From Candidatus Poribacteria bacterium (GTDB taxonomy: Bacteria > Poribacteria > WGA-4E > WGA-3G), in contig OZ242029.1 in assembly GCA_965205015.1 (NCBI GenBank), forward strand, positions 4,160,001 to 4,224,000: a stretch of 64,000 nt of DNA, read 5' to 3'. Under the pieces are notes generated by a model. The model searched no databases and was not told the origin of the DNA. It worked only from the letters and a program-made list of their open reading frames with translations. The number at the start of each line of letters is the position of its first letter. Position 1 is the first letter of the stretch. Below are positions 4,889-56,527 of the stretch, in pieces. A program made the translations under genes and the position numbers.

Positions 4889-4896
4889 ATTTTTTC

Positions 4897-4995
4897 GTAG
4901 TTAACAGTCTTCGGTTAACAGTTAACAGTTAAAAGAGGGTAAAGTTCAACGAAACCCTTTTAACTGACAACTGATAACTGACAACTGACAACTAT
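4897..4995. repeat. 7-bp-periodic inverted-arm hairpin element (family A)
   Basis: (GTTAACA)n left arm, CAGTTAAAAGAGGG...CCCTTTTAACTG core, (AACTGAC/AACTGAT)n right arm. Relatives at about 913-1000, 3930-4050, 5786-5885, 6520-6643, 8900-8935 and 37829-37928. Confidence 0.85.
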
Positions 4996-4998
4996 TCC

Positions 4999-6503: not shown

Positions 6504-6645
6504 TTATCCTCCTTTTATTTAGCCATCAGCCGTCAGCCTTCGGAAACCGTCAGTTTTTGGAAACTTTCGAACCCAACAGGAAACGGATGACACATCAAAA
6601 ACCGCTTTACTGACGGAAACCGATAACCGATGGCTGATTGCCAAT

Positions 6646-23775: not shown

Positions 23776-24345
23776 TTAAAATGTGACGCGTCTATAAATG
23801 TCGCGGAGCGGAAGTGCACAATTGATAGAAAAAAGCGGTAACACATCTGTAAGTTTACGGAATTCCGTTGAAATCCACTCCGTTTCTTGACGAAGGTAGT
23901 GCTCTACGCGCACTTTATCTTGTGAAATCAGGCTGTATTCTTGCAAGGCGGGAATCTGCCGATAACGTGCGAATTTTTCACCTCGATCCTCGGCTTCGGT
24001 TGAAGGTGAGAGTACCTCCACAACAATACGCGGATTGAGGAGCGTGTCAAAAACGTCGTCTTCAAAACGGAGCTCCTTGCAGGCAACGACCACATCTGGA
24101 TAGAAATAGGAAGTTGTCGTGCCAGCCTTGACACGCATGTCACCAATGAAGGCTTCACACTCACTATCGACTAATTGATTGGAAATCCCATTAAACACAT
24201 CCCCCGTGATGCGATTGTGCGCTCGACTGGCACCAGACATTGCGACTATTTCTCCTTTGATGAACTCATTTTTGAAGGGTGCTTTGCGCTCAAGGGTGAT
24301 GTACTCTTTGGGGGTTAAGCGAGTTCGCGCAGCAGCAGATACCAT
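23776..24345 (-). CDS. Uma2 family endonuclease
   Basis: MSGASRAHN, FYPDVVV, VEVLSPST and DRGEKF motifs. Confidence 0.92.
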   Translation of the reverse strand: MVSAAARTRLTPKEYITLERKAPFKNEFIKGEIVAMSGASRAHNRITGDVFNGISNQLVDSECEAFIGDMRVKAGTTTSYFYPDVVVACKELRFEDDVFDTLLNPRIVVEVLSPSTEAEDRGEKFARYRQIPALQEYSLISQDKVRVEHYLRQETEWISTEFRKLTDVLPLFSINCALPLRDIYRRVTF

Positions 24346-24452
24346 AGTTTCCTCCACGAATCTGATAGCATTCCTAATATATTAACTCAAATTCACTGTG
24401 AATATTATAATAGGAAATCTATTGCAAAATCAACGAAATTCCGTGAATTGTT

Positions 24453-27096: not shown

Positions 27097-27222
27097 ATGA
27101 AGTTTAAATAAATATTTCGGTAATCCTATCCCAAAAAAGACATTGTAGGGGGTTTTTGCTTGGGTGTTTCCCCAGGTCTTGTGCCTGCCCACATATTACC
27201 GAATTAAATTCTTAATCTTCAT
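27097..27222. repeat. MITE-like element with imperfect terminal inverted repeats, containing a REP
   Basis: ATGAAGTTTAA...TTCGGTAAT versus ATTACCGAA...TTAATCTTCAT. Confidence 0.55.
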
Positions 27223-28215: not shown

Positions 28216-28304
28216 GGAACGGAAGAAAGAAAAGAAAGGAAGGATGGAAGGATGGAAGAAGGGAAGGTTGGGTAACCCCCTTCCAATCTTCCGCCCTTCC
28301 AACC
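28216..28304. repeat. 8-bp-periodic GGAAGGAT/CTTCC hairpin element (family B)
   Basis: (GGAAGGAT)n...(CTTCCaat)n; relatives at 51921-52012, 53249-53330, 39476-39525 and 41887-41918. Confidence 0.8.
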
Positions 28305-28312
28305 AAATCGCT

Positions 28313-34046: not shown

Positions 34047-34146
34047 GTCTGAACTGTGATTTAAATGATTGAAGGATTACCTTGATTGTCGGAGTTTTCA
34101 TTCTTCCATCATGGTGAATCACATAAATCACATAAATCTTGGTCAA
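34047..34146. repeat. 9-10-bp-periodic TGATT/AATCA hairpin element (family E)
   Basis: GTCTGAACTGTGATT...AATCACATAAATCACATAAATC; half copy at about 15756-15815. Confidence 0.7.
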
Positions 34147-34148
34147 AA

Positions 34149-35009
34149 ATGCGGATAGACACCTTTCTGGTAGCGCGCGGCTTGGCAGAGAGTCGGGAAC
34201 AGGCGAAACGGCTCATTCTTGCGGGTGCAGTGACCGTCAACGGAAACGCCAGAATAAAGCCAGGACAACGGATTCCCGCTGATGCCAAAGTGGTCGTCCA
34301 GCAGCAACAAAAATATGTGAGCCGAGGCGGGTTCAAGTTAGAAAAGGCGTTACACACCTTTGACATAAACGTTCAAAATCGGGTTGCGCTTGATGTCGGT
34401 GCGTCAACAGGTGGGTTCACAGATTGTCTCCTCCAGCACGGTGCGAAATTCGTCTACGCCATCGATGTCGGTTACGGACAACTGGCGTGGAAACTTCGCA
34501 CGCATCCGCAGGTGCAACCGATTGAGAAAACGAACATCCGACACCTAACGCCAGCACACCTAAAAGCATCAGCGTTGAATGACCGGCAAGATTGTGCCTC
34601 CATTGCCGTGATTGATGTCTCCTTTATCTCTTTGAGAACGGTGCTGCCGAGTGTCATCAAGCTTATCACGCAGCAAGATAACAGTCAATTATCGATTGAC
34701 ATCATCGCACTGCTGAAACCGCAATTTGAAGCTGGCAAGGCATACGTAAAAAAAGGTGGGATCGTGTCTGATAAACAGGTCCATATCCAGACGATAGATA
34801 CCCTCAGTGCTTTCGTCACGGAGAAACTCGGAGCCACAATGAGAGGATTGACCTATTCACCGATCCACAAGGACATCGGAAATATTGAGTACTTGCTTTG
34901 GCTTACGGTCGATGGTAAGCGTCGGGATTTTCGTCAACATCAACAGACAGCTGCTGAGGTTGTAGAAGCGGCTCACGAATTTTTTAATTGTTCGCAAGGT
35001 GTTAATTGA
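34149..35009 (+). CDS. tlyA: TlyA family rRNA 2'-O-methyltransferase
   Basis: S4 domain, YVSRGGFKL, LDVGASTGGFTD, DVSFISL, KPQFE and GNIEYL. ATG at 34149. Confidence 0.93.
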   Translation: MRIDTFLVARGLAESREQAKRLILAGAVTVNGNARIKPGQRIPADAKVVVQQQQKYVSRGGFKLEKALHTFDINVQNRVALDVGASTGGFTDCLLQHGAKFVYAIDVGYGQLAWKLRTHPQVQPIEKTNIRHLTPAHLKASALNDRQDCASIAVIDVSFISLRTVLPSVIKLITQQDNSQLSIDIIALLKPQFEAGKAYVKKGGIVSDKQVHIQTIDTLSAFVTEKLGATMRGLTYSPIHKDIGNIEYLLWLTVDGKRRDFRQHQQTAAEVVEAAHEFFNCSQGVN

Positions 35010-35206
35010 AGTCATAACTTCATTGAAGGTTTTCTCTCATATCCGCCTGCGTGTTTTTGCAAACGCTAAAATCCAATGCGAAGAAAGTATTTCTGCGTAT
35101 TGTTGCAGGCTACTGTCTTAAGTTAATTTTCGTAACCGTAGCCCGTAATGTAATGGAGGGGTTTTTGCTTGGGTGTTTCTTCAGATTTAAGAAAGGAACT
35201 TTAAAG

Positions 35207-38200
35207 ATGAAATCTGCGTTATTCCTCCGCAAGGTAAAATTAAAAATTTTCGTCGGGATATTCCTCATTGTCGGGCTATGTGGAACGCTTTTCTTTATCC
35301 GTTCGAGGACCTTTCTGGATTGGATAGAGGGACGGCTTGAGACTGAACTCAAAAATAGGATAGACAGTAGCTACACCGCAACCGTCGGCAACATAGAGGG
35401 AAATATCTTAGGGAGCGTCAGCGTTAGAAGCGTTGAGATTTCCAAGGAAAACAGACCGGTAATCTCCACTGGAAAAGTCTTACTCAAATACAATCTGTTA
35501 GGGCTGCTCACTCGGAGATTTGAGGTGAAGGCGCTACAGGTAGATAAAGCGGAGATTCACGCCCGTAGGAACGCCGATGGTGACCTTAATCTGACACATA
35601 TCTTTACGAAACAGGACGGACAAGACGCCGCACAGTTCGATTTTGCCATTGAATTGCTCCAGTTGACTGACGGAACCCTCGGTTACACCGACACGCAACG
35701 CAATCTTGATCTCCGGATTGATGGAATTACCATTGCGGTGAAAGGACCTCTCAACACATGGAAGCATAACGGAAGGTTTGAAATTGAAAGTGGCAGTTTC
35801 AGGTTCAACGGTGCTGAAACGGCAATTGACACGTTTGATGCCGATTTTCAGATCTCCGTCAGCGGCAGTACATTGGATAAACTTCGATTGGAATTTGGCA
35901 ACTCCAATTTGGAGGTTACTGGCGAATTGATCCACAAAGAAACCGCGCCTGCTTGGAACAGCAAAGTCGAATTAAACCTGAACTTTGCAGATATAGCGTC
36001 GTTTTTGGGCGAAAATATTGAACTTAAAGGGAATGTTGGCGCGACGCTGGTCGTGAATGGTACAGATTCCGCCTTAGCAGGAACGCTCTCTGTGGAAATA
36101 CCAACGTTCTCCGCTGTCCCTGCCCCGTCAGGTCTTGTGCCTGCCCACAGTCGCAACATAGCGTTGACAGCAGGACATGTTGACGCGGATTTCAACTCCG
36201 AACCCACCCCAATATTCACAGTAAAAAAACTCAGTTTCCAAGTCGCCGATGGTACCGTGGTCGGCGATGGGAGCGTCACGTCACAGAATGCGTTGGAAGG
36301 TCCTCTGCTAAAGAGCCTTCAACAATTGTCAACCCATCCGATGACTTACCGCGGAAAATGGGACGCGACAAACGTACAACTGGTCTCCCTGCTGTCAATG
36401 TTCACGCACCCCCCAGAAAACCTTACTGGCAGCACGGGACTTCTCTCAAGTCGTGGAGAACTCAGTGGCAATAGCACGAACATTTCAAGTCTCGAACTTG
36501 ACAGCAAAATAGTGCTGACAGGGACAACACTCGACGAAGTTAAACTTGACGATTCGACGCTCAATTGCACAATAGCATCGGGTGAATTGAAAATCGACGG
36601 GAACTTAGATGAAACTGAGATTAATATCACAGGTCCCTTTCCCGTTGAACGCCAAGACGTTTTGGATATCCACGCAACAGACCTCAATTTCGATGATTTG
36701 ATGAAAATTGTCGACAGTGCGGATATCGGCGGGACAGCAGAGGTGTCCGCGCAGTTGTCGGACGGCACACTGACCGGGTTTATGAAAATTCCGAATGCGA
36801 CTTTCAACGACATCCCGATCGGTGCTTTGTCGGGTGATTTCCGCTACCAAGACGGACGGGTATTCATCGAAAACGGATTGATGACGAAAAATACAATAGA
36901 ACAGCTGATAACTACTAAAACTCAATATGAGAGTCGCACCAAAATAACCGGTATTGTAGAGGTTAAAGGCGAATTCCCCGCAGATTTCCGCGTCATCGCC
37001 GACCCGGTTTACGTCCAACATTACCCGAAACTCTTGTTAGGTGCTGAATATCCTGTAGAGGGTGAGATCAGAGGCGAACTCACATTGAGTGGAACGCTCA
37101 TCCATCTGGATGGCAGTGCCGACTTCAGTGTTACCGAAAGCGTGGCATGGGGTATCCATTTGGATCCGCTGACGCTCCCTTTGGAGATTGAGGATTACAC
37201 CTTCAGACTGCCAGATTTCAAGATAACCACGCGCGGTCAGCAGATTACCTTTAATGTTACAGCCGCCCCTAACGGGGACTATGACCTTCTCCTTGAAAGT
37301 GATGCCCCTGTCCGTTTAGAAGAAATTGCGAAGGCGGCAAATCTCCCCGATTTCCCCTTTGAAGGACAATTCGACGTTCGGGTTGTTGGAACGCTCAAAA
37401 AACCGGCGCGTCCTGATATTCAGGTTAAACTCGATTTTTCAGACTTCACCTTCTTGCACAATGAACGCGGCACAAAATATCCGCTCGGCGATGTCTATCT
37501 GCTCGGAAAACTCGTAGAACGGGAAGAGACTACCGGTGAACCCGATATCTACGACTTCCAGGGACACGGTTTTGAGGGGACGAGTCAGATTCAGGGGTAC
37601 ATCAGCATGGCTGCAGGGAACCCTTACCAGTTCACGGCGGAGGGTGAGACTTTTGACATGACACGGATCCTACCCATATTACACCCAATGCTTGAGGCGG
37701 TTACGGGGACCGCTGATGGGACCGCATCAATAAGGGGGACATTGGCAGACCTCGCACCATCGACTGAGGACGAAGTTACTGAATCCCAGAAACAACAGGT
37801 CTATCCCTATGATGTTGATATTCTTGTGAGTCGTTGTCAGTTGTCGGTTAACAGTCGTCAGTTAAGAGGTGGGTCTGTTGAACCAGAGTCTTCTTTAACT
37901 AACCATCAACAACTGATAACTGAAAACTATTCTTTCACAAATACTGAACCGATTCGCCTGCATCTCAAAGACGACACATGGACAATCGATACCCTTTCCC
38001 TAAGGACATCCGAAGATAAAGTCCCGTTTCTTGAATTGACAGGGACCTTGGATGCTAAAACTGAGATGATGAATCTGCACGCTGCATCTGACGGGTTCGC
38101 GCTGCTACCTTTTGAAGAGACATTCGGACTTCCACCTGGCATGCTGCAAGCCGGTGCTGTTCGTTATGATTTGAAAGTGACGGGGACATCCCTCGAACCC

Positions 38201-41200
38201 ACTGTTCAGTTAGAATGGGAAATCCCGACGCTCATATTAGAAACAGATGCGGGTGATATTGACATTGCCGATGCGGGTGGGGTCATAACATATCAAAGGG
38301 AGACGCTGCGTTTTGAGAGCTGCGCTTTCAAACTCTTCGGGAACGATGTGAACTTGGAAGGGTATATTGATGTTCATCCCGAAACGGTTAACACCTCGGA
38401 GTTACACCTCCGCGTCGATACGATTACCTTAGATCTTGCCACTCTGCCGATGGTGGCTCTCGATACTCTTGGATCCGGTAACGGAGTAACCGGGATTTTA
38501 GAGGCATCAATAGAGATCGGCGGCACGCTCGCTGAGCCGCTTGCGCTCCTATACGCCGAAACAGTCGGACAGCGGCCGATTCGTGTTGTCTCTTATATTC
38601 CGTCTATCACGCTGGAGCGCCTTCGTGTAGATGTTCATTTCGATTCAGACTTCGTGCGTGTTCAAAGGGTGGAAGCGAACGGGCAGGTGGGAGAGGGTCC
38701 CTACCGTGTCCAAGGAAAAGCCGTGTTCTCACGCGGGAATAGCCGTCAGCCATCAGCCGTCAACCATCAGCAGTCAGCCGATAGCTATTTCGAGGTTGAT
38801 GTGTCAGCGTCACAAATAGGGATTGGGGACTATGGTTTCGCTTCAGGACGTGTTAAGCTCAGCGGGACGGGCTTAGACCCACAGCAGCTTACGGTAATTG
38901 GTGAAATAAAGGAACTGGAACTTGACGGCTACAATTTCCGTCTGACGAACAGCGCGCCGCTCCAATTCATATCGGATCCAGCAGGAACGACTGAGGAAGC
39001 GGAGCCGCTTGCTGTGCACATTCCGCTACAACTCGAATCACCGGCTATGACAGCGGCGATGGAGGTCAACATTGCAGGCACCATTACCTCCCCTGAAATC
39101 ACAGCAGACTGGCACGGCATACTCAATGACAAGGCGTGGACAGGCAAAATCCAGTATCGAGATGAACGGATAAACGTCACCGGAATAGAACTCAAAAACT
39201 CTGAAGGGACGTTAACTTTCGTAGGTGTTATTCCGTTTAATCTGACGTTTGAAGCGATGGATATATCTGAACGGTTTATGGCGCTACCTATTGATGTACG
39301 TCTTCGAGGTAGCGAACTGCCTCTCAATTTTTTTCCAAGGATTGAGGGGATGCCCTTTTCAGAGGCGGATGGCACCGTTGACATAGATTTGGGACTGCAA
39401 GGCACAAGTCGATCGCCGGAACTCGTGGGCACCGTGTTTCTTGAAGCACCGCAACTACATCTCAAGGACTTTCACGGAGAAGGAGAAGAAAATGGAAAAC
39501 GAAGTTTTCCATCCCTTCTTCCGCCGCTTCAGAATATGCAGCTGCACCTCAGTGCGCGGGAAGACTTGATTGATTTCACAGCATTTCGATTCGACATAGC
39601 GGACGGTACCTGTAGACTTGAACAAGGGCAGGTCGTATTAGACGGCTTAATGCCAAAATACTTGATATTACGAGGGTTGAGATTAGAACGATTTCCACTC
39701 GGTTCGACTCTCCGTCAGGTCTTGCCGCCAGACCTGTCAAAAGAGGTAGAGGGACATATAACAACGACCTTACGTTCATTAACAGTGCCATTCGATAATT
39801 TCTTAGGGCTTGGAGAAAGTACGCCATTTCCACAAGTCCGAGAGATCCCTTCACTCACGGACCTTGTGACTGTTTCAAATGCGGATTTATCAATTGATAG
39901 TGTCCGCTTCGCTTTCAAGGCAGTGGATCGGACTTATGACTTCCGAAACCCGCGAAAGACCCCGATCGTTCTGAGTGGTGGAACTTTGGCTTTAACGGAG
40001 ATTTTCACGCTTGAAAACCGAGACGAATTCTCAGTCAAGCAGACCTTTACCGACGAGGATACAAAACCTGATGGTTTACTTGGGAACGAACAAACACTGT
40101 CAGCCAAGACGACGCTCAGTATAGATGCTGAAAGTAAATGGTCAGTGGACGGGGTTTTTGATGGCGCACTTCGGATCAAGAATTTTGATGTCTCCGTGAT
40201 AACCGACAGGTGGCCTGCGCCGTATCGGGTTACCGGTGCCCTGTCTGGAAGTCTACAGATGAGCGGGACCAGCGAGAATCCGAAGATAACCGTGCGGCGG
40301 CACGAGCGCGAACCTGCCGAACTCTACCTACACGATATCCCGATTGACCTGCGCTGGAGGATCCGCTATCAGAACGGGAAGTGGGAAATAACAGAGAAAC
40401 GATACGTGGAAGTTACATTCGGTGAAAACCAGTTGACTTTCTCATGGACAATGCCTTACAAATTTGAGGTAATTCCGTTCCTGACGGCACTGCAACAGAC
40501 ACCAGAAAAGGTCTGGACGGAACTCCAAGAGACTGAGATGCATGGAACTTTGGATATAAAAATAAACGACCTGACCATGCTACCGTCTGTGGTCCCAGGG
40601 CTTAGCACTGCAACGGGGACGAGTGAAATCCATACCAAATTGACAGGGACGATTGAAACCCCGCAAGTCGATGGGAGTGTCCGTTTCGAGAATATAGGAC
40701 TTACGTTTTCTGAAGCGAATATTCGGGTTAAAGAGGTTGAAGGCGACATTCGGTTATCAGAAACAGAGGCAACTATTAGGCAATTTGAAGGCATCTTGAA
40801 CAACGGGAGATTTGTTACTACGGGCAACATTATCGCGCCGCCAGATAGACCCATCTGGGAGAAACCTCCGACGTTGAATGTGTCCACGGGTCTCACATCA
40901 ACGGTTTTTGAACAGATGGGACAGTATCGAGTGGACCTCGCTTCCATGTCAGTTGGTCTGCACGGTGAACTGCTACGCCCGCGTCTCACGGGGGAACTCG
41001 ATATCAACGGCGGCTACTACCAACAGAATTGGGAAAGCGTTCGGGATTGGCTTACAGGGGGTTCGGTCAAGGAGACAGAACTTGTATTGGATTCCCCGAT
41101 TCTACGCGATTTACATCTGGATGGGGTAGATATTAACATCTCTGATAATTTTCGTGTGCTTTCATCAATCACAGGACCTACAGATATTGAAATCGCCTGT

Positions 41201-41716
41201 TTAGGCAAACTCTTCGGGACAATCCGTCAGCCGGTATACAGTGGGAACGTATCGGTACTGAGCGGAAAAATTGGGTTCATTGCGCAGACTTTTGAATTCC
41301 TCGAAGGTTCTCGAATCAGCAATCAGAGCACTGTTGACTTCGATCCAGAACTCAATATCTTTCTCCGGACCCCGAACCGGATTCGCGGTGTGCTACCGAG
41401 AGATGGAAGCACAATAGATCTTCAAGTGTATGCCGCCTTTACTGGCACTCTCAGCAATCCGAATTTCGTCCTGAGCGCGCCCCCTGAAACGACAACGGAA
41501 GTCCTCTCACACGACGATATTATAGATTTCATCTTACAGAACGCTGCACTCTCAGGCGCGCTCGGTGCGTTTACGTTTAGTTTCCACCGTCCGCTTGATG
41601 AAGATGCACGGTATATCAGTGCAGAGTACCCACTTGGGAAAAATGTGTCCATTAAAATTGAAACCAACGAAAAAAGGGAACACGGGATTGACCTTGAATT
41701 CAAAGGGCGGTTCTAA
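35207..41716 (+). CDS. TamB/AsmA-like translocation and assembly protein (about 2170 aa)
   Basis: N-terminal TM, beta-rich repeats of the GTLxxP type, DUF490-like C-terminus; immediately upstream of an Omp85 gene. Confidence 0.8.
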   Translation: MKSALFLRKVKLKIFVGIFLIVGLCGTLFFIRSRTFLDWIEGRLETELKNRIDSSYTATVGNIEGNILGSVSVRSVEISKENRPVISTGKVLLKYNLLGLLTRRFEVKALQVDKAEIHARRNADGDLNLTHIFTKQDGQDAAQFDFAIELLQLTDGTLGYTDTQRNLDLRIDGITIAVKGPLNTWKHNGRFEIESGSFRFNGAETAIDTFDADFQISVSGSTLDKLRLEFGNSNLEVTGELIHKETAPAWNSKVELNLNFADIASFLGENIELKGNVGATLVVNGTDSALAGTLSVEIPTFSAVPAPSGLVPAHSRNIALTAGHVDADFNSEPTPIFTVKKLSFQVADGTVVGDGSVTSQNALEGPLLKSLQQLSTHPMTYRGKWDATNVQLVSLLSMFTHPPENLTGSTGLLSSRGELSGNSTNISSLELDSKIVLTGTTLDEVKLDDSTLNCTIASGELKIDGNLDETEINITGPFPVERQDVLDIHATDLNFDDLMKIVDSADIGGTAEVSAQLSDGTLTGFMKIPNATFNDIPIGALSGDFRYQDGRVFIENGLMTKNTIEQLITTKTQYESRTKITGIVEVKGEFPADFRVIADPVYVQHYPKLLLGAEYPVEGEIRGELTLSGTLIHLDGSADFSVTESVAWGIHLDPLTLPLEIEDYTFRLPDFKITTRGQQITFNVTAAPNGDYDLLLESDAPVRLEEIAKAANLPDFPFEGQFDVRVVGTLKKPARPDIQVKLDFSDFTFLHNERGTKYPLGDVYLLGKLVEREETTGEPDIYDFQGHGFEGTSQIQGYISMAAGNPYQFTAEGETFDMTRILPILHPMLEAVTGTADGTASIRGTLADLAPSTEDEVTESQKQQVYPYDVDILVSRCQLSVNSRQLRGGSVEPESSLTNHQQLITENYSFTNTEPIRLHLKDDTWTIDTLSLRTSEDKVPFLELTGTLDAKTEMMNLHAASDGFALLPFEETFGLPPGMLQAGAVRYDLKVTGTSLEPTVQLEWEIPTLILETDAGDIDIADAGGVITYQRETLRFESCAFKLFGNDVNLEGYIDVHPETVNTSELHLRVDTITLDLATLPMVALDTLGSGNGVTGILEASIEIGGTLAEPLALLYAETVGQRPIRVVSYIPSITLERLRVDVHFDSDFVRVQRVEANGQVGEGPYRVQGKAVFSRGNSRQPSAVNHQQSADSYFEVDVSASQIGIGDYGFASGRVKLSGTGLDPQQLTVIGEIKELELDGYNFRLTNSAPLQFISDPAGTTEEAEPLAVHIPLQLESPAMTAAMEVNIAGTITSPEITADWHGILNDKAWTGKIQYRDERINVTGIELKNSEGTLTFVGVIPFNLTFEAMDISERFMALPIDVRLRGSELPLNFFPRIEGMPFSEADGTVDIDLGLQGTSRSPELVGTVFLEAPQLHLKDFHGEGEENGKRSFPSLLPPLQNMQLHLSAREDLIDFTAFRFDIADGTCRLEQGQVVLDGLMPKYLILRGLRLERFPLGSTLRQVLPPDLSKEVEGHITTTLRSLTVPFDNFLGLGESTPFPQVREIPSLTDLVTVSNADLSIDSVRFAFKAVDRTYDFRNPRKTPIVLSGGTLALTEIFTLENRDEFSVKQTFTDEDTKPDGLLGNEQTLSAKTTLSIDAESKWSVDGVFDGALRIKNFDVSVITDRWPAPYRVTGALSGSLQMSGTSENPKITVRRHEREPAELYLHDIPIDLRWRIRYQNGKWEITEKRYVEVTFGENQLTFSWTMPYKFEVIPFLTALQQTPEKVWTELQETEMHGTLDIKINDLTMLPSVVPGLSTATGTSEIHTKLTGTIETPQVDGSVRFENIGLTFSEANIRVKEVEGDIRLSETEATIRQFEGILNNGRFVTTGNIIAPPDRPIWEKPPTLNVSTGLTSTVFEQMGQYRVDLASMSVGLHGELLRPRLTGELDINGGYYQQNWESVRDWLTGGSVKETELVLDSPILRDLHLDGVDINISDNFRVLSSITGPTDIEIACLGKLFGTIRQPVYSGNVSVLSGKIGFIAQTFEFLEGSRISNQSTVDFDPELNIFLRTPNRIRGVLPRDGSTIDLQVYAAFTGTLSNPNFVLSAPPETTTEVLSHDDIIDFILQNAALSGALGAFTFSFHRPLDEDARYISAEYPLGKNVSIKIETNEKREHGIDLEFKGRF

Positions 41717-41723
41717 GGGAAAA

Positions 41724-41811
41724 AAGTTTGCGAGTGTATCTAAAGTTGTGAAGTGCCTAAGGTTGTTGACAACTTTACCGACCTTAGCACACTTTATGAA
41801 CTTTAGCACAC
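41724..41811. repeat. AAAGTT/AAGTG periodic hairpin element (family D)
   Basis: (TAAAGTTGTGAAGTGCC)-type left arm and (ACTTTAGCAC)-type right arm; second copy at about 44937-45032. Confidence 0.8.
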
Positions 41812-44800
41812 GCTATGCAGTTTGTCTTATTCTGTGGCTTCCTTTCTGCTTTTTCCTGCAATCTATAGAAGCGCAGGAAAAAACGACGGAATCTTCCAGA
41901 CTTCCAATCTTCCAACCCAACGATTCCTCTCAGAAACGGATTGCGAAGATAGAGTACTACATTGGCACAACCCCTGCAGAAGAAACCCCAGAATACCCGA
42001 GTATACTTAGAAACCAGACAGTCGTATCAGTTGACAACACACTGTCTCGTCATACGATTCAACAGAGTATAAAAGCACTCTATGCGACACAGCAGTATTC
42101 CCAAATTCAGGTATACTTGCAGGACACTTCCGATGGTATTGTTTTAACCTACCAGTTAACTCCTTTCGCGCGTATCGAACAAATTGTGCTCGCCGGCATC
42201 CCTGAAAACGAGGTCAAGGATGCCATTGAGAATGCGATGCGCTCAAAACCGGGAGGAAGGTATGTCCCTACGATCGTCAAAACCGATGTGCAGCGCATTA
42301 AAGACGTCTGTCAAGCGTATGGATATTTTGACGCTAAAGTCACAGTCTCCGATACGCTCACCGAAGCGGGGACGTTAACCTACCAGATAGCCGTGGGTGA
42401 TGCCTCACGTATCAAAATATTGCAAATTCAGGATAATGTTGCCCTCTCAATCAACAGCCTTAAAGCCGTGTGTAACTTTAGCCGGCTCTTTCCGATTTAC
42501 AACGAATCCGGTGTAGAGACCGATGTGGCATCCATGGTGGCACTTTACCGTAAAAACAATTATCCCACTGCGACGATCGTCCCAAACTTTAATCATGAAA
42601 CGGGGGTGCTGCAATTTAAGGTCACTGAAGGGAGAGAGGTTCGGTTTAACTTTGTTATGGATGTCGGAGAGGTCCCGCTATCGCTCCAAGACGCATTCAG
42701 AGAAGACATAGTTTCGCTGATAAACACAGCGTCCTCGTCTGTATGGGAACGCCGGATAAGATCCTATTTCAAAGCCAAAGGTTACCACGATACCACCGTA
42801 GCGGTGGAGACACCGGACACCTCGACTGTGCGATTGACGATTAATCCGGGGATGCGTTATGTCGTTAAGGATGTCATTTTCTCTGGGAATAGGGCATTTT
42901 CGGATGCACAACTGAAGCGAGAGATGACGATGAAACCGATAGGCGGCTTTCTACGAAACTTACAAGCAGACATCGCAAGAGTGTTATTTCAGCACGAACA
43001 GAGACCCTTTTTTTATGAAGTAGAACTTGAAACCGATAGGCGTCGGCTCGACATTTTATATGGAAAGGTGGGGTATCCGAAGGCAACGATTACGACAACG
43101 CTTGATAAACAAAACTCAAACAACCGGCGTATTGGCGAAGTTGTGATACATGTCGCAATAATTGAAGAACACAAGGAGATGATTCACCGATGCGCCGTCA
43201 GCGGGAACAACGCGTTAGATACCGCGACGCTTCTGACACGTTTGGTGAGTGAACTCCCGCTTCCGCAGCCGAATGCCTCGCTTACGCGGAAAGCCTACAG
43301 CGACGCAATCTTAAAAGCCTATTACGAACTCGGATACATTGATGCAGCGATTAGTAACGCGTATGTATCAGAAACGGAGGATCCAGTTTTTCGGGTATCG
43401 GGTAATTTCTCTGAACCTCTTGCAGATCGTAAACTCCCGCCAGAAATCCGATCAGAATTCGACAGACATAACCTTACACTTACAGGGGCTGACATAACTA
43501 CCCAGATCGGCAATCGTTGGAGTCTCCAGGACATTGAAGGGAATCCACGGTATACACTTATACAGGAAGCGGCACATCTTGAGGTTTATGAACACGGCGT
43601 GCTACACCTCACTGTGGATCAGGAGGGTGAACAGGTCGTGTTCGGTAAATTCTATTTTGTAGGGGACACGGATGTTGTGAAACGGGACGTGTTTGAACGG
43701 GAAGTTACGCACCTTGAAGGAACACTGTGGACCTCGGAGAAGTTAAGCAGAGTCTTGCAAAACCTCTACAATTTGGGGCTTTTTCGCAGCGTCCAATATG
43801 AGCGTTTCTCACAACCGACCCGTAGCATAGGGACCCCGCAATCATCGAAGGTTACAGATTCCCCTCACCTCCGTCTCAGGAAAACCAACGATGTTTTAAT
43901 AACAGTCGAAAAACAGAAACCAAGAACCTACAGTGTGAGCAGCGGTTACAGCTTCGCAGAGGGGGTCCGCGGAACAGTGGTGTTGACGGACAGCAATTTC
44001 CTCTTTGATCGGAACATCCGAGGACGGGTGCGCAGCAGATTGGGATGGCGAGACGAATTAGGCTATCTTTTTGACGCAACACTCACCGAACCGTGGTTGA
44101 TTGGACGGACGCGGGGGAGTCTACAGGTATTAGCCAAGAAGTTAGAAGTAGACGATAACGTCCGCGCCCTTCAGGGGAGTTTTATCCTCAGCAGAGACTT
44201 GTCGGAATCGCACCATCTCGATCTAAGATATAGTTACCGGGACTTGAACCAACCCGTTCCACCGGTGCAGGATTCTCCCACAGGTATCGGCTCCCATATA
44301 GAGCAGAATCCTTTCAGCACAACCGTGAGCAGTGTTCGATTTTCTTGGACCTACGACAACCGCGAGCGTTATTTGAATCCTACCGGTGGTATGTTGAACG
44401 ATCTCACGCTTGAATACGCGGGCGGCAACCTCTTGCGGGGTGAAACCAGTTTTATTAAGACAACAACGGATACCCGGTATTACCAAAAACTTATCGGTGG
44501 GCTTGTAGTAGCGACCGCCGTCCGATTCGGAATCACGACAGGATTGCGCTCAAACCGGCGCGCGGAACTGATCTCTTTTGAGCGGTTTTGGGCAGGTGGC
44601 GGGACAACCGTTCGCGGTTATGCGGAACGCTCTCTCGGTCCCAAGGATAGCACGGGCATCCATCGCGGCGATGTGCAATTCATCTTTAACACGGAACTCC
44701 GCTTCCCAATCTATCGGATCGTTCGCGGTGCCCTCTTTTTTGATACCGGCAATGTTTGGGATGCCTTAGCGGATATCGAGACGACGCAACCGCTACCCTC

Positions 44801-44936
44801 CTCTGTTGGTGCCGGGCTTTACTTGGACCTGGGTGCCCTCACGGCTGGCATCGATTATGCGATCCCACTCGTGTCCGTGCCAGGTGCTTTAGATCCGAAC
44901 AGAGCCGTTCACGTTCGTGTGGGGAGTACATTTTAA
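41796..44936 (+). CDS. Omp85 family (BamA/TamA) outer membrane protein with multiple POTRA domains
   Basis: POTRA signatures (YGYFDA, FSGN), GGGTTVRGY, ELRFP, FFDTGNVW and terminal Phe. Confidence 0.88.
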   Translation: MNFSTRYAVCLILWLPFCFFLQSIEAQEKTTESSRLPIFQPNDSSQKRIAKIEYYIGTTPAEETPEYPSILRNQTVVSVDNTLSRHTIQQSIKALYATQQYSQIQVYLQDTSDGIVLTYQLTPFARIEQIVLAGIPENEVKDAIENAMRSKPGGRYVPTIVKTDVQRIKDVCQAYGYFDAKVTVSDTLTEAGTLTYQIAVGDASRIKILQIQDNVALSINSLKAVCNFSRLFPIYNESGVETDVASMVALYRKNNYPTATIVPNFNHETGVLQFKVTEGREVRFNFVMDVGEVPLSLQDAFREDIVSLINTASSSVWERRIRSYFKAKGYHDTTVAVETPDTSTVRLTINPGMRYVVKDVIFSGNRAFSDAQLKREMTMKPIGGFLRNLQADIARVLFQHEQRPFFYEVELETDRRRLDILYGKVGYPKATITTTLDKQNSNNRRIGEVVIHVAIIEEHKEMIHRCAVSGNNALDTATLLTRLVSELPLPQPNASLTRKAYSDAILKAYYELGYIDAAISNAYVSETEDPVFRVSGNFSEPLADRKLPPEIRSEFDRHNLTLTGADITTQIGNRWSLQDIEGNPRYTLIQEAAHLEVYEHGVLHLTVDQEGEQVVFGKFYFVGDTDVVKRDVFEREVTHLEGTLWTSEKLSRVLQNLYNLGLFRSVQYERFSQPTRSIGTPQSSKVTDSPHLRLRKTNDVLITVEKQKPRTYSVSSGYSFAEGVRGTVVLTDSNFLFDRNIRGRVRSRLGWRDELGYLFDATLTEPWLIGRTRGSLQVLAKKLEVDDNVRALQGSFILSRDLSESHHLDLRYSYRDLNQPVPPVQDSPTGIGSHIEQNPFSTTVSSVRFSWTYDNRERYLNPTGGMLNDLTLEYAGGNLLRGETSFIKTTTDTRYYQKLIGGLVVATAVRFGITTGLRSNRRAELISFERFWAGGGTTVRGYAERSLGPKDSTGIHRGDVQFIFNTELRFPIYRIVRGALFFDTGNVWDALADIETTQPLPSSVGAGLYLDLGALTAGIDYAIPLVSVPGALDPNRAVHVRVGSTF

Positions 44937-46233: not shown

Positions 46234-49200
46234 TTATTTCCGTATCAAGAGTTTCCGTGTTGCTGTAAAATCGCCAGTTGTTAAGGTATAGAAATAGACA
46301 CCACTTGCCACGCGCTCGCCTTGGACATTCCGACCGTCCCAATACGCTGCACGGCTTTTGCCATGATATATCCCCGCAGGCTGATGTCCGAGTGCCAACG
46401 TCCGCACCAAGGCACCATTTACAGCATAAATGTGCAATGTTACTTCTGTAGGTTGTGACAATTGATAGGGTATCCAGGTTTCCGGGTTAAACGGGTTCGG
46501 GTAGTTGTGAAGTAGAGCCGTGTTTTCTGGCACGAAGCGTGCCAAAAGTCGTTCGAGAGTATCGATCCCGCGTTTGAACGTCAGTGTTCCATCGTCCGCT
46601 GCGCGCAGGATGTTCAGCGCGTGTTCAACAGTGTCAAGTGTAAACCCGAGGGGCAGTGCGGGGGACGAAGGGGCAGCGGGTGCGTCGCCTTCGCCGAGGT
46701 GTTCAGCGACAAGGGCAAGGTCTTTGCCGTCCACAACGCCATCGCCGTTGACGTCGAGACGCGGGTTCTTCGGCTGCTGTTGCCCCAATGCCGCCGTTAC
46801 GAGTGTTGCGTCCGTTGCATCGGTGATACCGTCTTCATTGACATCCCACGCCGGTCGAGCAGCTTCGGCTGTTGGAAGCGTAAGCGTATATTCCGCATCA
46901 GCCGCAAACCCAAAAAAGCCACTCCATTCACCCCATCCCTCATAGACAGCCACCAATAAGATATTTTTTCCTTTTTTAAGAGTGACAGGGAATTGGTCTT
47001 GATAGTTATAAGCTGGCCGGTCCACAGGATTGTTATGAACCAGTTCCCCGTTGAGCCAGACTTTGACGGCATCATCGCTCCCGATATACATCCGTGTCTT
47101 CTGTGTCCGGGACGCATCTAAGGCGATGGAACCATAAGCAACATGGTTATCTATATCACCTTCCGCTAACCCGATCGCGTTCACCAGTTCGGTGATGTTA
47201 TCGTTCCCAGTCGGGGCGATGTTGCCGGGGGTCCACACCTTATCTCCTATAGCACCACCAATCCTTGCTCCGTTAGTGGCAACCTGCTTTTCTGTAACGG
47301 CATCCCCACTCGCTTTTGCGAGGTAATCTATTTCTGAAGTTGCCGCTGCACTTCCGTCTACCCCTGTCGGAACAATCACCCATACCCAGGGACCCTCTAT
47401 TTTCGGACCCGCTTGCGGATAGAAGTTCTCCACTGAGAAGACCCCCTCCTGATCCATCACTTGAAGCGCGACTTCGCCACCCTGTCTAAATATCGTTTTG
47501 GAGACGACGAATTCAACCGTGCTGCTGGTTCCATTCAAGTGCTTACAAACTATTAATTGAAAGTATAATTCTTCAGATTCTTCTTCGGGTGTCAGCAACT
47601 GTGCCTGATGGAGTCCATCGGGATCCGTAACCTCAAAGCGGAGGCGAATATCGTCCGATGGTACTGATTGTGGTGGGCTCATCTCAATCGTTGTGACTTC
47701 ATTAAATCCTGTCTCGTGGGTGTTGAAGTAACTATGGGCATCCAACCATTCCGCGGCACAGAAAGACCGGATCATCTCGTCCGCGGTATGTGAAGACAGC
47801 ACGCGTTTAGGATTCGTGCGGTAATCGTGTTGCAATCCAAAGGCGTGCCCGAGTTCATGCGCGATCACATCCACGTTAAAGCAATCGCCAGAGGCAGGGA
47901 CGAGTACCATTCCACCAGATGCTCCACGGGGACCGCCGCGACCGCACACGTCGCTACCATCGAGGATTTCGTTACTGATATCTATCGCAGTGATATAGAT
48001 ATTCGTTGATGTGTCAAACTGTTGACGAATTTCTTCCCACATGTCCCATGTGTCAGATAAATTATTATAATGTTGATCTGTGAACTGTCCGACAACATGA
48101 TGCACGACCGCCTTCCCGTTCACATCAGTTTCATACTTAAAAGTTTTTCTGCCAAACCCGTGTCGCTCCATGATCTCGGCGTAAGCGAGTTGTGCCTCTT
48201 TGATGAACGCGTCCATCTTTGCGTCAATATCGGGTTGAGCGGTGCGGTCGCTCGGGAGAAAATAGATCAACCGAACTATCCCGCGTTGTTGATAGGACTC
48301 CAGATAGGACTCAATATCCCAGATATGGACGGTGCCATCTTCACCGCCGCTGGCAAGGGTTGTGCCGTCGGGAGAGAAGGCAATTCCGTGAATCCATTTT
48401 CCCCCTGTGTGTCCTGTCAGCGTGCCTATCTTTTCACCATTTTTAGCAGACCAGAGGATTACCTCTTCCCAGCCCCCACTGGCGAGTATCTTCCCATCAG
48501 GAGAGAAATCAAGGGAGGCTACATTCGTCTGAAGTGTGCCGAGAAGTTCCCACTTGGAGACGGTTTCCCATAACTTGATTTCTCCCCACGAGGAACTCGC
48601 GAAGGTCCGATTATCGGGAGAAAATTTAGCATAATTGACATCTTCAGTATCTCCATCTAATATAATGCTAATTTGTTTTTCCTGAACATCCCAGATTTTC
48701 ACGGTAGTTTCTATGTGATCATCGGTGGCAAGATACCTGCCATCGCTTGAAAAGGCTGCCAACCAAACCCACTCATCATGTGGCAGTGTCGCAATCTCCT
48801 GCTGATTGATGATATCCAATAGTTGAACATGTCTACCGGAGACGGCAAGCATCTTGCTGTCAGGTGAAAAAGTTACATGGGGGACTGGGGAAGGCATTCG
48901 GAATGTAATGGGTTCGCGGGTTTCAATATTTTGCCAGTGTGAAATGTCCCATACTTTGATGGTAGCATCATCGCTGCCACTCACAAGCCATTTGCCGTCG
49001 GGTGAGAATGTTACCGAATTGACGACATCAGTATGGTCCTCGAGGATTTTCACGGTAGTGTTCTGCAGATTCCACACCTTCACGGTGTTCTGTCCACCCG
49101 CACTCGCAATGAGATTAGGATTCACAGGTGAAAAAGCAACCGAGCTCACAGAACCCCCATGATCAAGGATGGTCGGCTCCTGTGCGAAACAGGGTGCCCA

Positions 49201-49266
49201 AAAGTTCAATAGGACGATGAGTGTTAAAAATACATGTTTGCATTGTATCTGAAAATTTTTTTTCAT
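46234..49266 (-). CDS. secreted WD40-repeat + zinc metalloprotease + dockerin-like + C-terminal sorting-domain protein
   Basis: Signal peptide, about 7 WD40 repeats, HELGHAFGLQH, GSDDAVKVWLNG module, DVNxDG repeats and NYPNPFNPETWIPY tail. Confidence 0.88.
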   Translation of the reverse strand: MKKNFQIQCKHVFLTLIVLLNFWAPCFAQEPTILDHGGSVSSVAFSPVNPNLIASAGGQNTVKVWNLQNTTVKILEDHTDVVNSVTFSPDGKWLVSGSDDATIKVWDISHWQNIETREPITFRMPSPVPHVTFSPDSKMLAVSGRHVQLLDIINQQEIATLPHDEWVWLAAFSSDGRYLATDDHIETTVKIWDVQEKQISIILDGDTEDVNYAKFSPDNRTFASSSWGEIKLWETVSKWELLGTLQTNVASLDFSPDGKILASGGWEEVILWSAKNGEKIGTLTGHTGGKWIHGIAFSPDGTTLASGGEDGTVHIWDIESYLESYQQRGIVRLIYFLPSDRTAQPDIDAKMDAFIKEAQLAYAEIMERHGFGRKTFKYETDVNGKAVVHHVVGQFTDQHYNNLSDTWDMWEEIRQQFDTSTNIYITAIDISNEILDGSDVCGRGGPRGASGGMVLVPASGDCFNVDVIAHELGHAFGLQHDYRTNPKRVLSSHTADEMIRSFCAAEWLDAHSYFNTHETGFNEVTTIEMSPPQSVPSDDIRLRFEVTDPDGLHQAQLLTPEEESEELYFQLIVCKHLNGTSSTVEFVVSKTIFRQGGEVALQVMDQEGVFSVENFYPQAGPKIEGPWVWVIVPTGVDGSAAATSEIDYLAKASGDAVTEKQVATNGARIGGAIGDKVWTPGNIAPTGNDNITELVNAIGLAEGDIDNHVAYGSIALDASRTQKTRMYIGSDDAVKVWLNGELVHNNPVDRPAYNYQDQFPVTLKKGKNILLVAVYEGWGEWSGFFGFAADAEYTLTLPTAEAARPAWDVNEDGITDATDATLVTAALGQQQPKNPRLDVNGDGVVDGKDLALVAEHLGEGDAPAAPSSPALPLGFTLDTVEHALNILRAADDGTLTFKRGIDTLERLLARFVPENTALLHNYPNPFNPETWIPYQLSQPTEVTLHIYAVNGALVRTLALGHQPAGIYHGKSRAAYWDGRNVQGERVASGVYFYTLTTGDFTATRKLLIRK

Positions 49267-50809: not shown

Positions 50810-52024
50810 TTACACATCCTTTACCGATGCTTCTTCTTTTTTCACCTCAGCGTGTGCAGATGCTCGCTTACGGAAAAGTTGGATAGAACTATAACCGATG
50901 ACGAACAACAGAATCGTCGCTTGCATGACCAACGTCACCTTGTCAGAGATACCAACCTCCCGCTGCATGCTATAGGAACCTGTCGTCAGCGCGCCAAATA
51001 ACAACGCAGCAGCAACCGTCACTAACGGATTCAACTTTGCCAACAAAGCGACGGCGATCGCTGTGTAGCCGTATCCGGGCGAAAAGTTGAGGAAAAGTCG
51101 ACGGGTCAGGGCTGTGAGTTCAATCGCCCCACCAAGCCCTGCGAGCGCGCCACTGATGAAAAAGACGCGGAGCGTGTTTTGCACAATTGAGATGCCAGCG
51201 GCTTCCGCTGCCGCCGCGCCTTCTCCGACTGCGCGGAGTTGAAACCCGAATTGTGTTCTGAAGAGAATAAACGTGAGAATAATTGCCAACACGACAGCGA
51301 TCACAATGCCGAGGTGGACCCGATGCGGTGGAAAAAGTCGAGGCAGAAATACCCACTGAACGATGCGATCGCTCTGCGGACCGCGTTGCGCTGCCTCCTG
51401 CAATGGACCGCCATCTATCATCAGACTCACCAGATGGAGGGCGACGTAGTTCAACATAATCGTGCTGATAACTTCGTTGACCCCGCGCACCACTTTGAGG
51501 ATCGCAGGGATGAGTCCCCATACGCCACCCGCGACTGTGGCAAGTCCGAGACACAACGGCACTGCAATCCACGGGGTTTGCGGAAAAATTGGCGCAAGTT
51601 TCGTCCCAAACCATGTCGCCGTTAGCGCGCCTATTAAAAATTGTCCCTCGGCACCGATGTTCCAAATCCCACACCGAAACGCCATTGCCACCGAAAGCCC
51701 TGCCATCAGAAATGGTGTGCTTTTGACTAAGGTTTCTCCGAACTTTCTGCCTGTCCCGAACGCGCCACTCACCGCGGCTTGGTAAGCCTCTAATGGGTTA
51801 TAGTGACAGAGCAGCATGATGATGGCATTTACAACAAACGCACTCACGAGAATTAGAACAGGCGTTGCGAGCCACTGAATATTGATTTTCTTTAATATCA
51901 TAAAAATGGTCTTTAGTATTTGGTTGGAAGGATGGAAGGATGGAAGAATGGGTGCCCCTCTTCCAACCTTCCACTCTTCCATTCCAGTATCTTCTATCCT
52001 TCCATTTCCTCCTCTGATTGCCAT
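50810..52024 (-). CDS. nucleoside/sugar ABC transporter permease (NupB-like); start at 52024 or 51901
   Basis: WNIGAEGQ, NEVISTIMLNY and GYGYTAIAVALL motifs. The first 41 codons are largely repeat DNA. Confidence 0.88.
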   Translation of the reverse strand: MAIRGGNGRIEDTGMEEWKVGRGAPILPSFHPSNQILKTIFMILKKINIQWLATPVLILVSAFVVNAIIMLLCHYNPLEAYQAAVSGAFGTGRKFGETLVKSTPFLMAGLSVAMAFRCGIWNIGAEGQFLIGALTATWFGTKLAPIFPQTPWIAVPLCLGLATVAGGVWGLIPAILKVVRGVNEVISTIMLNYVALHLVSLMIDGGPLQEAAQRGPQSDRIVQWVFLPRLFPPHRVHLGIVIAVVLAIILTFILFRTQFGFQLRAVGEGAAAAEAAGISIVQNTLRVFFISGALAGLGGAIELTALTRRLFLNFSPGYGYTAIAVALLAKLNPLVTVAAALLFGALTTGSYSMQREVGISDKVTLVMQATILLFVIGYSSIQLFRKRASAHAEVKKEEASVKDV

Positions 52025-53676
52025 TCCCCGGTCATTAGCAATCCGAGTACCTCGATATCGTTGCGTTGCGCCGTTGCTTCGATCAGTTTGCCTCTCGACA
52101 TGACATAGAGTCGATCGCTCAACAATAAAACCTCGTCTAACTCTGTTGAAATTAACAGGACAGATTTTTGTGCGTCGCGCTGTGCCAACAGGTTCTCATG
52201 GACATAGCGAGCTGCGTTGACATCTAAACCGCGTGTCGGATTCACAGCGATAAGGAGGTCGGGGTGCAGCGAGATTTCTCGGGCGAGGACGATTTTCTGT
52301 TGATTGCCGCCAGAAAGCGCGGACGCGGGAATATCAGGATTCGGGGGTCGGATATCATAATCCGTGATTAAACTTTCTGCTGTTTCACGTTTCCGCTTCT
52401 GGTTAAGGACATTCCAGTGAGCGAGATTTTGTAGGTGGGTCACGTTCAAAAGGAGGTTTTCCGTAACCGAAAACGCGGCGATAACCCCGGTTGTCTGCCT
52501 ATCTTCAGGGATATAGCCGACACCGTGTTGACGGACCGCCTTTATCCCTTTGTTGACGGAGCCTTTCAATCTTCGATTGAACAGCGAAGTCAACTTCGGA
52601 TCGGTGCCTAAGATGCTTACTGTACCAGAGTCACTGGGTCGTAACCCCATGATTGCCTCGGCGAGTTCACGCTGTCCATTGCCATCGACACCAGCGATAC
52701 CCACAATTTCACCGCGACAGGTCTCCATAGAGACATCTGACACTGCGATCTCGTTTCGACTGCCGAGGACTGTTAAGTTTGAGATGTGTAGGACATTCTC
52801 TGGAGGGACGTTTTCGAGGTGTGTGCCGGTTGAACGTTCAACGTCGGTGATGTCTTCTCCAATCATCTCCCTTGCGAGTTCCCGTGCGGTTAATTCACCC
52901 GTCGGCCCGAGATAAACTTTCTTGCCGCGTCTTAAAACGGTAATTCGATCACTGATACTCAGGACCTCTTTCATTTTGTGGCTAATGAAGATGATGGCGC
53001 GACCATCGGCTTGAAGTTTGCGCAGAATCGTGAAGAACCCTTCTACCTCCTGTGGGCTTAGAACGGCGGTGGGTTCATCGAGGATCAGGATACGGGCATC
53101 AACGGCGAGAGCTTTGAGGATCTCCACGCGTTGTTTTAAACCGACTGAGAGCGTCCGGACCAGCGCCGTTGGATCAACAGCGAGACCGAACCGCTCCGAG
53201 AGCTCTTCAGTGATACGGATAGCCTCCTCCTTCTTAAACCAAAAAGAGTGGAGGAGTGGAAGACAGGAAGATTGGAGGAAAGATTTCCAGCCATCCTTCC
53301 ACTTTTCCCCCCTTTCCTCCTTCCTACCTGTTCGCAATTGTCCAAGAGCCAAGGCGATATTCTCAGCGACCGTCAGGTTCTCAATCAGCATAAAGTGCTG
53401 ATGCACCATGCCGATACCGTTCGCAATCGCATCCCGTGGTGACTTTGCCCGTAACCTGCGCCGCCAGTTTTCGCGATCGGTAACATAGATGCGTCCCAAG
53501 GACGGTTGGTAAAGCCCATAGATGAGATTCATCAGCGTGGACTTTCCTGCGCCATTCTCTCCCAAAATCGCGTGGATTTCACCGGCTTGCAATTCAAAAT
53601 CGACATCGTCAACAGCGACAAGATCGCCGAAGGATTTCGTAACATTCCGAAGTTCAAGGATATTCTCTGTTGCCAT
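51994..53676 (-). CDS. nucleoside/sugar ABC transporter ATP-binding protein, double domain (NupA-like)
   Basis: GENGAGKST, VHQHFML, ILDEPTAVL, GVDGNGQ and LSGGNQQK motifs. Confidence 0.93.
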   Translation of the reverse strand: MATENILELRNVTKSFGDLVAVDDVDFELQAGEIHAILGENGAGKSTLMNLIYGLYQPSLGRIYVTDRENWRRRLRAKSPRDAIANGIGMVHQHFMLIENLTVAENIALALGQLRTGRKEERGEKWKDGWKSFLQSSCLPLLHSFWFKKEEAIRITEELSERFGLAVDPTALVRTLSVGLKQRVEILKALAVDARILILDEPTAVLSPQEVEGFFTILRKLQADGRAIIFISHKMKEVLSISDRITVLRRGKKVYLGPTGELTARELAREMIGEDITDVERSTGTHLENVPPENVLHISNLTVLGSRNEIAVSDVSMETCRGEIVGIAGVDGNGQRELAEAIMGLRPSDSGTVSILGTDPKLTSLFNRRLKGSVNKGIKAVRQHGVGYIPEDRQTTGVIAAFSVTENLLLNVTHLQNLAHWNVLNQKRKRETAESLITDYDIRPPNPDIPASALSGGNQQKIVLAREISLHPDLLIAVNPTRGLDVNAARYVHENLLAQRDAQKSVLLISTELDEVLLLSDRLYVMSRGKLIEATAQRNDIEVLGLLMTGEWQSEEEMEG

Positions 53677-56168: not shown

Positions 56169-56527
56169 GCTTCCTTTCTCCTAACAGTATTTCTCTTCAG
56201 GGTGCTAAGTTTCACTGCTATCTTGGCTTCGCGCCAAATATCCTAAAAAGTATACGTTATTTGGGCAGGCATGTCAACAGAATTGTGCAGAGTTCGTCAA
56301 TTCGTTTGTAGGAGGGCTCTCCGAATTTTGACCGTTTTCACTCCCCGCTTACCGGGGAATACAAGGGAGTAGACTGCGGCTCTCGATGTTCTGTGTAAAA
56401 AAATATTTGACAAGAATTTCAACCTTGTGGTATTATTTTTGCTAATCACGCAATATGCTGACAAGAAATGCCACCAGCGTGTTTGGTAGGTTCCAGAAGA
56501 AGTTGTGAAAAAAAGGAGATATATTTT

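Follow-up and report, generated by a model that had tools for sequence, protein, structure and literature searches.

Rickettsia palindromic elements (RPEs) are dispersed palindromic repeats of several families that occur between genes and also in frame inside unrelated genes, and the peptides they encode are compatible with the fold of the protein, as stated in the review PMC10969869, which cites Ogata et al. 2000. We have detected elements with the same in-frame, multi-family behaviour in a 64-kb stretch of DNA (the window) from the genome of a Candidatus Poribacteria sponge symbiont, within a tamB-like gene and the bamA-like Omp85 gene that follows it. An original prediction, made from the letters of the window, had proposed that several unrelated repeat families add peptides to these two proteins in the manner of RPEs. 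Since multi-family in-frame insertion is already described for RPEs in PMC10969869, this is not a new principle. Nevertheless, we consider it highly probable that dispersed palindromic repeats have been inserted in frame into tamB and bamA, are translated there, and are tolerated as passenger loops. The locus is a well-supported RPE-like case in a new phylum: the open reading frame (ORF) is kept intact, with the insert as a lineage-specific indel whose position is fold-compatible in a predicted model, and the same repeat family is found in non-coding DNA and inside genes. The likeness to the Rickettsia elements is one of description. Besides, the Poribacteria elements differ from RPEs in several respects. 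Their host belongs to a different phylum and is a sponge symbiont, whereas the host of RPEs is an obligate intracellular parasite. They are shorter (~30-120 nt, against ~150 bp), with arms made of tandem 7/8-nt units, most of their non-coding copies are without any open frame, and different families return to the same insertion hotspots.

Another related group is formed by the short tandemly repeated repetitive (STRR) heptamers of cyanobacteria, together with small dispersed repeats, with abundant tandem heptamers and very small mobile repeats that are sometimes found inside genes. Compared with the STRR heptamers, again by description, those of Poribacteria form two hairpin arms around a conserved loop. 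Repetitive extragenic palindromes and their mosaic elements (REP/BIME), as well as repeats of the miniature inverted-repeat transposable element (MITE) type such as ERIC, BOX and Correia, are likewise short, intergenic and hairpin-forming within operons (here rpsB-tsf-frr-cdsA-dxr), and the hairpins in the gaps of this cluster are placed like REP/BIME within E. coli operons. In contrast to these systems, no target-site duplication was established here, and no RAYT or insertion sequence partner was found among the 40 window ORFs that were scanned. ERIC and other MITEs occasionally occur inside genes as in-frame fusions, according to PMC10969869, and the abstract of PMC4692102 describes heptameric repeats as over-represented in bacteria. 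No account linking Poribacteria with such repeats was found in the literature searched, which also yielded nothing of use on heptamer or STRR hairpins.

The data comprise the window and about 26 kb from each of 56 related loci (L-numbers below), all named Poribacteria, as are the closest proteins. Together they form a DNA database of 1.41 Mb, in which ORFs of at least 200 aa were masked, leaving 181 kb treated as 'non-coding'. From 210 merged tamB segments in 57 genes we retained 123 inserts of at least 10 aa, and these were compared with 123 size-matched coding controls. Matches to non-coding DNA at E <= 1e-3 were found for 71/123 inserts and for 0/123 controls. For the 91 inserts of at least 14 aa, the fold z had a median of -1.93, compared with 0.03 in the controls (Mann-Whitney p 1.7e-10). 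The palindromic character is strong in the intergenic copies and has decayed in the coding copies of the window, except at site 3 (Table 1).

Individual segments were examined by comparing the best BLAST score against the masked non-coding DNA with the scores of 200 dinucleotide shuffles, hits being counted at 28 bits or more. The original prediction would have fallen if the similarity to intergenic repeats were no better than in shuffled controls. At sites 1, 2, 4 and 5 and at bamA 41887-41918, 0/200 shuffles reached the score of the segment, while site 3 and bamA 43821-43875 did not stand out from the shuffles. Chance or low-complexity similarity, with the segments being ordinary variable loops, does account for 43821-43875, and the family assignment of site 3 may be a matter of chance. 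As a general explanation we regard it as having a negligible probability, being refuted for 5/7 segments and by the coding controls.

Site 1, predicted to be a complete family-A element, indeed matches the heptamer-arm profile over hidden Markov model (HMM) positions 2-101 (nhmmer, E 5.3e-20) and has 77 hits of at least 28 bits, against a shuffle mean of 0.12, though its hairpin pairing has decayed (DNA fold z -1.14, with 24/200 shuffles folding equally well; intergenic copy z -5.49). Its empty state, present in most orthologs, is a loop of 14-16 residues, where the window has 34. The TCAGCCG run of site 2 is a repeat piece as predicted, namely a period-7 array of 5.7 copies with 31 such hits. 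This segment has 48 residues in the window, 37-38 in 54 proteins and 46-89 in 67 (n=121); ortholog versions of 57-89 residues occur, and the empty state has 37. At site 4, the predicted identity with an intergenic REP is exact: a 21-mer is common to 27173-27193 and 36129, 0/100 shuffles yield two matches, and four hits reach 28 bits. The left arm of this copy is mutated (fold z -0.29). In L006, L008 and L011, where the palindrome is present, the same element occupies the equivalent tamB site, and its source, a GC-rich hairpin of ~27 nt, also occurs in L006 (two copies) and L008 within non-coding DNA. No Y1 transposase was found within the 64-kb window. Across the 121 proteins, 11 carry the same insert at site 4 and 25 others a different one. 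Site 5 (six hits) has the full element in L003, L007, L008 and L017 and is empty in L020 and L045. The bamA segment 41887-41918, predicted as a family-B arm, matches one arm of the family-B profile (HMM positions 6-32, E 0.0025; six hits) and is missing from eight close orthologs, while bamA of L004 has a whole family-B hairpin at the same site, giving a longer insert (E 4.5e-14).

Site 3 is a pure, clean 45-nt DNA insertion, filled in 4/121 TamB proteins, and a genuine hairpin (fold z -2.94, 1/200 shuffles). It is the only coding copy in the window that keeps its pairing, the others being decayed (fold z -1.14, -0.11, -0.29 and +0.27). Sites 2 and 5 and bamA 41887-41918 are one-arm or internally deleted remnants. 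As the original prediction anticipated for its four tamB peptides, alignment with the 120 orthologs identifies them as lineage-specific indels, and the DNA borders of the inserts match the borders of the elements. Even at site 3, the cleanest of the sites, no clear target-site duplication was seen, and none could be established at the sites.

The arms of the elements consist of tandem 7/8-nt units that differ in number from one ortholog to another, and site 3 is without a detectable donor family, both of which would be expected if the segments were born in place within tamB, by tandem-unit slippage and template-switch palindromes and with no copying of dispersed elements. We consider such an origin very unlikely, given that the match of site 1 is full-length and includes the non-repetitive loop, that the exact 21-mer of site 4 is shared with non-coding copies here and has 17-18-nt exact matches to non-coding copies in two other genomes, and that inserts and coding controls differ so clearly in their matches to non-coding DNA.

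Table 1. Repeat-derived segments, host genes and intergenic reference copies, in coordinates of the window
Feature	Coordinates	Strand	Evidence
tamB-like gene, 2169 aa, five repeat-derived segments	35207..41716	+	Pfam TamB PF04357 E 2.2e-17, DUF748, AsmA
Site 1: full-length heptamer-arm hairpin (family A), 34 codons in place of ~14 ancestral loop codons	37829..37930	+	nhmmer, ortholog indel, DNA borders
Site 2: heptamer-arm element (arm of TCAGCCG type) with an internal deletion	38741..38785	+	period-7 array, ortholog indel, shuffles
Site 3: 45-nt purine/pyrimidine palindrome, family-B-like, single recent insertion, +15 residues	39476..39523	+	ortholog indel, fold
Site 4: remnant of short GC-rich REP hairpin, read as ..SGLVPAHS.. 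(net +6 aa)	36125..36151	+	shared 21-mer, shuffles
Site 5: right-arm remnant EQLITTK of heptamer-arm hairpin, absent from the original prediction	36899..36919	+	57-gene alignment, shuffles
BamA-like Omp85 gene, directly downstream of tamB, 1046 aa from ATG 41796	41796..44936	+	Pfam Omp85, POTRA
bamA site: family-B octamer hairpin, right arm only, immediately behind the signal peptide, +13 aa	41887..41918	+	profile, indel, shuffles
Claimed REP remnant in bamA, an ordinary variable linker	43821..43875	+	BLAST, shuffles, fold, orthologs
Family A intergenic reference copy, frr-cdsA gap	4889..4998	.	fold z -5.49; flanking genes from Pfam
Intergenic heptamer-arm hairpin, TCAGCCG-type arms, rpsB-tsf gap	6520..6643	.	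nhmmer E 2.3e-07
Intergenic REP copy that includes the 21-mer; another small repeat seems to interrupt it	27147..27193	.	21-mer match; direct-repeat family D11
Family B intergenic reference copy, GGAAGGAT octamer arms	28232..28308	.	fold z -4.75; profile seed, E 1.2e-18

The use of the reading frame was assessed in 222 heptamer-profile copies spanning at least 80 HMM positions (139 non-coding, 83 coding), each in six frames. Among the 139 non-coding copies, 101 had no open frame, 30 had one, seven had two, none had three and one had four, so that 48/834 frames (5.8%) were open. The corresponding numbers for the 83 coding copies were none, 61, 19, three and none, and wherever a coding copy had exactly one open frame (61/83) this was the frame in use. 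Different tamB sites, bamA and a tlyA-like gene all read the element in the same peptide frame. Family B, on the other hand, is open in nearly all frames. The frame bias and the recurrent reading argue for translation of the inserts and for the purging of most insertions.

An AlphaFold2 model of residues 280-1479, based on 55 aligned fragments (L012 and L049 excluded) and with a mean pLDDT of 72.6, places all five tamB sites of the window in coil between strands. The model has nine segments with pLDDT below 50, five of which are the five sites; at site 1 these are model residues 607-626. Considering the insertion blocks of other orthologs within the fragment, 22/23 map next to coil (expected 0.54, binomial p 1.4e-5). 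The inserts are thereby predicted to be disordered loops between beta strands, and the mapping on predicted structures called for by the original prediction gave the loop positions that it anticipated.

The history of the sites was followed on a FastTree phylogeny of TamB (121 proteins, i.e., the window and P0003-P0122, none dropped; 2071 core columns), with site states scored as minimum changes. The 27 rows of a distant clade, 55-60% identical, have no insert at site 1 or site 3; at the other two sites the exceptions to their empty state are P0122, filled at site 2, and P0094, with an 'other' insert at site 4. In the near clade the sites are filled in subsets of rows. Site 3 needs a single change, one gain in a four-row clade with support 100, and the minimum for sites 1, 2 and 4 is 24, 14 and 17 changes, respectively. 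The hotspots are occupied by different repeat families in different lineages. Between the window and P0003, 5/81 insert residues differ against 18/2088 elsewhere (Fisher p 0.0013), a divergence about 7-fold faster in the inserts, and the same trend is seen against P0004 and P0005.

That different families have struck the same loops repeatedly, with the change counts just given for sites 1, 2 and 4, could also point to inserts as selected functional additions, for instance flexible Ser/Gln/Asn-rich linkers tuning how long TamB and BamA are, or what they contact, in the envelope of the symbiont. The site-1 allele retains a conserved loop peptide and has diverged about as much as its flanks, indicating long persistence. 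We find this explanation unlikely, however, because the insert residues change so much faster than the remaining protein, the inserts are predicted to be disordered and are often cut down to one arm, their presence or absence differs between close relatives, and similar inserts occur in unrelated cytoplasmic proteins. The inserts are most likely tolerated passenger loops, and we infer that they are both translated and neutral.

Several observations weigh against in-frame insertion of dispersed repeats as tolerated loops, or limit how it is to be read. The filled allele is without 4-14 ancestral codons at 4/5 sites, which plain insertion does not predict. The site-1 family-A allele, with identical borders in 15/121 proteins, needs 13 changes on the tree, and the DNA identity of the site-1 insert (67-79%) is close to that of its flanks (73-83%), so that its scatter fits neither simple vertical descent nor recent transfer. 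Site 3 is without BLAST similarity to non-coding repeats (127/200 shuffles equal it; 0 hits of at least 28 bits), and its match to the family-B profile reaches E 0.59 only, with no significant match to dispersed repeats; the claim of a family-B-like piece is upheld as regards a clean palindromic insertion with a hairpin, and only weakly as regards family B. Among the 40 window ORFs scanned, Pfam domains revealed neither a transposase nor a RAYT-like gene. The 'non-coding' class is heuristic, being all DNA outside ORFs of at least 200 aa. Because the alignment gaps were visible to the AlphaFold model, the loop positions cannot count as fully independent of the indels, and translation of the inserts is deduced from frame conservation only.

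The loss of ancestral codons and the scatter of site 1 also bear on a further possibility, that hairpin elements repeatedly overwrite the same loop segments of giant envelope proteins with a loss of 4-14 codons and that the resulting alleles spread patchily among co-resident lineages. In trees of the site-1 flanks (100-300 aa) the carriers are unclustered (11-13 changes, compared with 12-13 in three control regions and 13 for the whole gene), and these flank trees give no signal either way on recombination around site 1. We consider this possibility doubtful. If true, overwriting would point to a targeted or repair-linked mechanism, e.g., hairpin filler in break repair or very short-tract gene conversion, and this would represent a loop-diversifying system across the phylum.

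Returning to the insertion of dispersed repeats as passenger loops, we propose the following scheme. Poribacteria genomes are rich in palindromic repeats of ~30-120 nt that are mainly intergenic, and an occasional copy would enter a gene, surviving only if it has a length that is a multiple of three, a stop-free frame and a tolerant loop as its position. As TamB is very long, all-beta and has many hairpin turns, it would offer many such tolerant places. After insertion, the copies would be translated as disordered loops and then undergo loss of pairing, internal deletions and fast evolution.

The repeats belong to at least three kinds, i.e., heptamer-arm, purine-rich octamer and short GC-rich REP elements, which agrees with the several families originally proposed, except that family A and the TCAGCCG run, taken there as unrelated, are best regarded as one superfamily because they are recognised by one iterated profile. 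The heptamer-arm profile was obtained by iterated nhmmer, seeded on a copy from L053, and drift between arm types is possible in it. It finds 284 non-overlapping copies in the 1.41 Mb, of which non-coding DNA has 183, tamB 46, the omp85 ORF 14 and other ORFs 41; in the omp85 ORF, taken stop-to-stop, 10/14 lie at a relative position <=0.07, upstream of the likely start. The arm heptamers vary among copies while pairing is retained. Besides site 1, the profile matches in the window are in four intergenic gaps of the rpsB-tsf-frr-cdsA-dxr cluster; the family-A reference copy among them (4898-4994, E 4.4e-18) is part of the hairpin at 4889-4998, with tandem-heptamer arms around a non-repetitive loop. 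Such hairpins (3932-4055, 4898-4994, 5786-5891 and 6520-6643) fill nearly every gap of the cluster. For family B (GGAAGGAT-type arms), 29 copies reach E <= 1e-3 (16 non-coding, 11 in other ORFs, two in omp85). Period 7 accounts for 441/873 tandem arrays, and the density of period-7/8 arrays per kb is 1.08 in non-coding DNA, 0.146 in tamB, 0.136 in omp85 and 0.091 in other ORFs. A scan of the window against Rfam gave 0 families. A repeat of ~22 nt, GGGGTTTTTGCTTGGGTGTTTC-like, seems to interrupt the REP copy at 27147-27193 and may be a nested insertion there; it also occurs at 14635-14665 and 35152-35182, the latter just upstream of the tamB start.

Some approaches to the repeats were discarded. 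A hand-made regular expression for the family-A loop gave 13 matches only and missed site 1, and was therefore replaced by the iterated profile. An inverted-repeat finder detected the intergenic family-A hairpin and missed the decayed coding copies, and when the entire window was compared by BLAST with the masked database, syntenic coding DNA that had escaped the 200-aa ORF mask dominated the output, so no counts were drawn from it.

The tamB ORF extends stop-to-stop over 35051-41716, and ATG 35207 is the likely start because P0003, 99% identical, also has 2169 aa; from there the frame is open to 41716, in agreement with the ~2170 codons originally reported. The protein is TamB/AsmA-like in its C-terminal TamB (DUF490) and N-terminal AsmA/DUF748 domains and in its adjoining Omp85 gene. 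Its orthologs (n=120) are 55-99% identical, three of them being named TamB-domain or Poribacteria proteins, and the NCBIfam TamB model gives 51.6 bits only (cutoff 825). A Foldseek search of the TamB fragment model against the PDB was uninformative, with a best TM score of 0.19 (ApoB100 beta belt, LptD). Outside Proteobacteria, tamB often adjoins bamA. Here, the gene order dxs, tlyA-like, tamB, omp85 is conserved across the related loci, and an omp85 ORF follows tamB in 52/56 loci (53 rows including the window). Poribacteria TamB proteins range from 2108 to 2356 aa, and the repeat inserts explain much of this variation in length.

The Omp85 protein scores 230 bits against the TIGR03303 BamA model (cutoff 297) and 59.6 bits against the TamA model (cutoff 625), and by these scores is nearer to BamA than to TamA and a formal member of neither. 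A second segment of this gene, 43821-43875, had been put forward as a probable REP remnant, and we reject it as a repeat: 64/200 shuffles equal it, with 0 hits of at least 28 bits, its BLAST matches lie only at homologous bamA positions, it forms no hairpin (fold z +1.70), and comparison with close orthologs shows no indel there. An imperfect hairpin with 30-nt arms, 73% complementary, fills the space from the stop of tamB to the start of bamA (41723-41795), where related loci have heptamer-arm elements.

In-frame inserts were also found in other genes. An ABC-transporter ATPase gene (51997-53676, - strand) contains an in-frame family-B hairpin at 53245-53331 (-; profile E 1.3e-11), read as the peptide TGRKEERGEKWKDGWKSFLQSSCLPLLHS within the first ABC domain. 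Its orthologs in L008, L029, L031, L048 and L051 have a family-B insert of variable length, and at the corresponding relative position those in L009 and L011 carry a heptamer-arm element. In about 30 of the related loci, among L003-L056, the gene just upstream of tamB, which is tlyA-like and encodes an S4/FtsJ methyltransferase, contains an in-frame heptamer hairpin located 0.53-0.60 along its length; the copy in the window (34086-35009, 307 aa) is without it.

Elsewhere in the window, the region 15978-25907 resembles a defence or mobile island, with a Type ISP restriction-modification enzyme (15978-19067), an AAA_15/AAA_21 ATPase and a Uma2 endonuclease, and is flanked by repeats of 10-nt units and long inverted repeats (19061-19110, 20083-20132 and 22540-22565). 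Two large WD40-repeat proteins are encoded at 46234-49266 (-) and 56468-59179 (+), the second with ~14 tandem 126-nt units, and a MazF/PemK-like toxin gene is located at 59933-60277.

Overall, these results extend selfish palindromes of the Rickettsia type, read as protein, to an uncultivated phylum of sponge symbionts and to unrelated families of elements. With dozens of genomes, Poribacteria offer a natural experiment of unusual clarity on where TamB, BamA and other proteins have loops that can accommodate 10-40 additional residues. In practical terms, such segments should be recognised when Poribacteria genomes are aligned, modelled and annotated.

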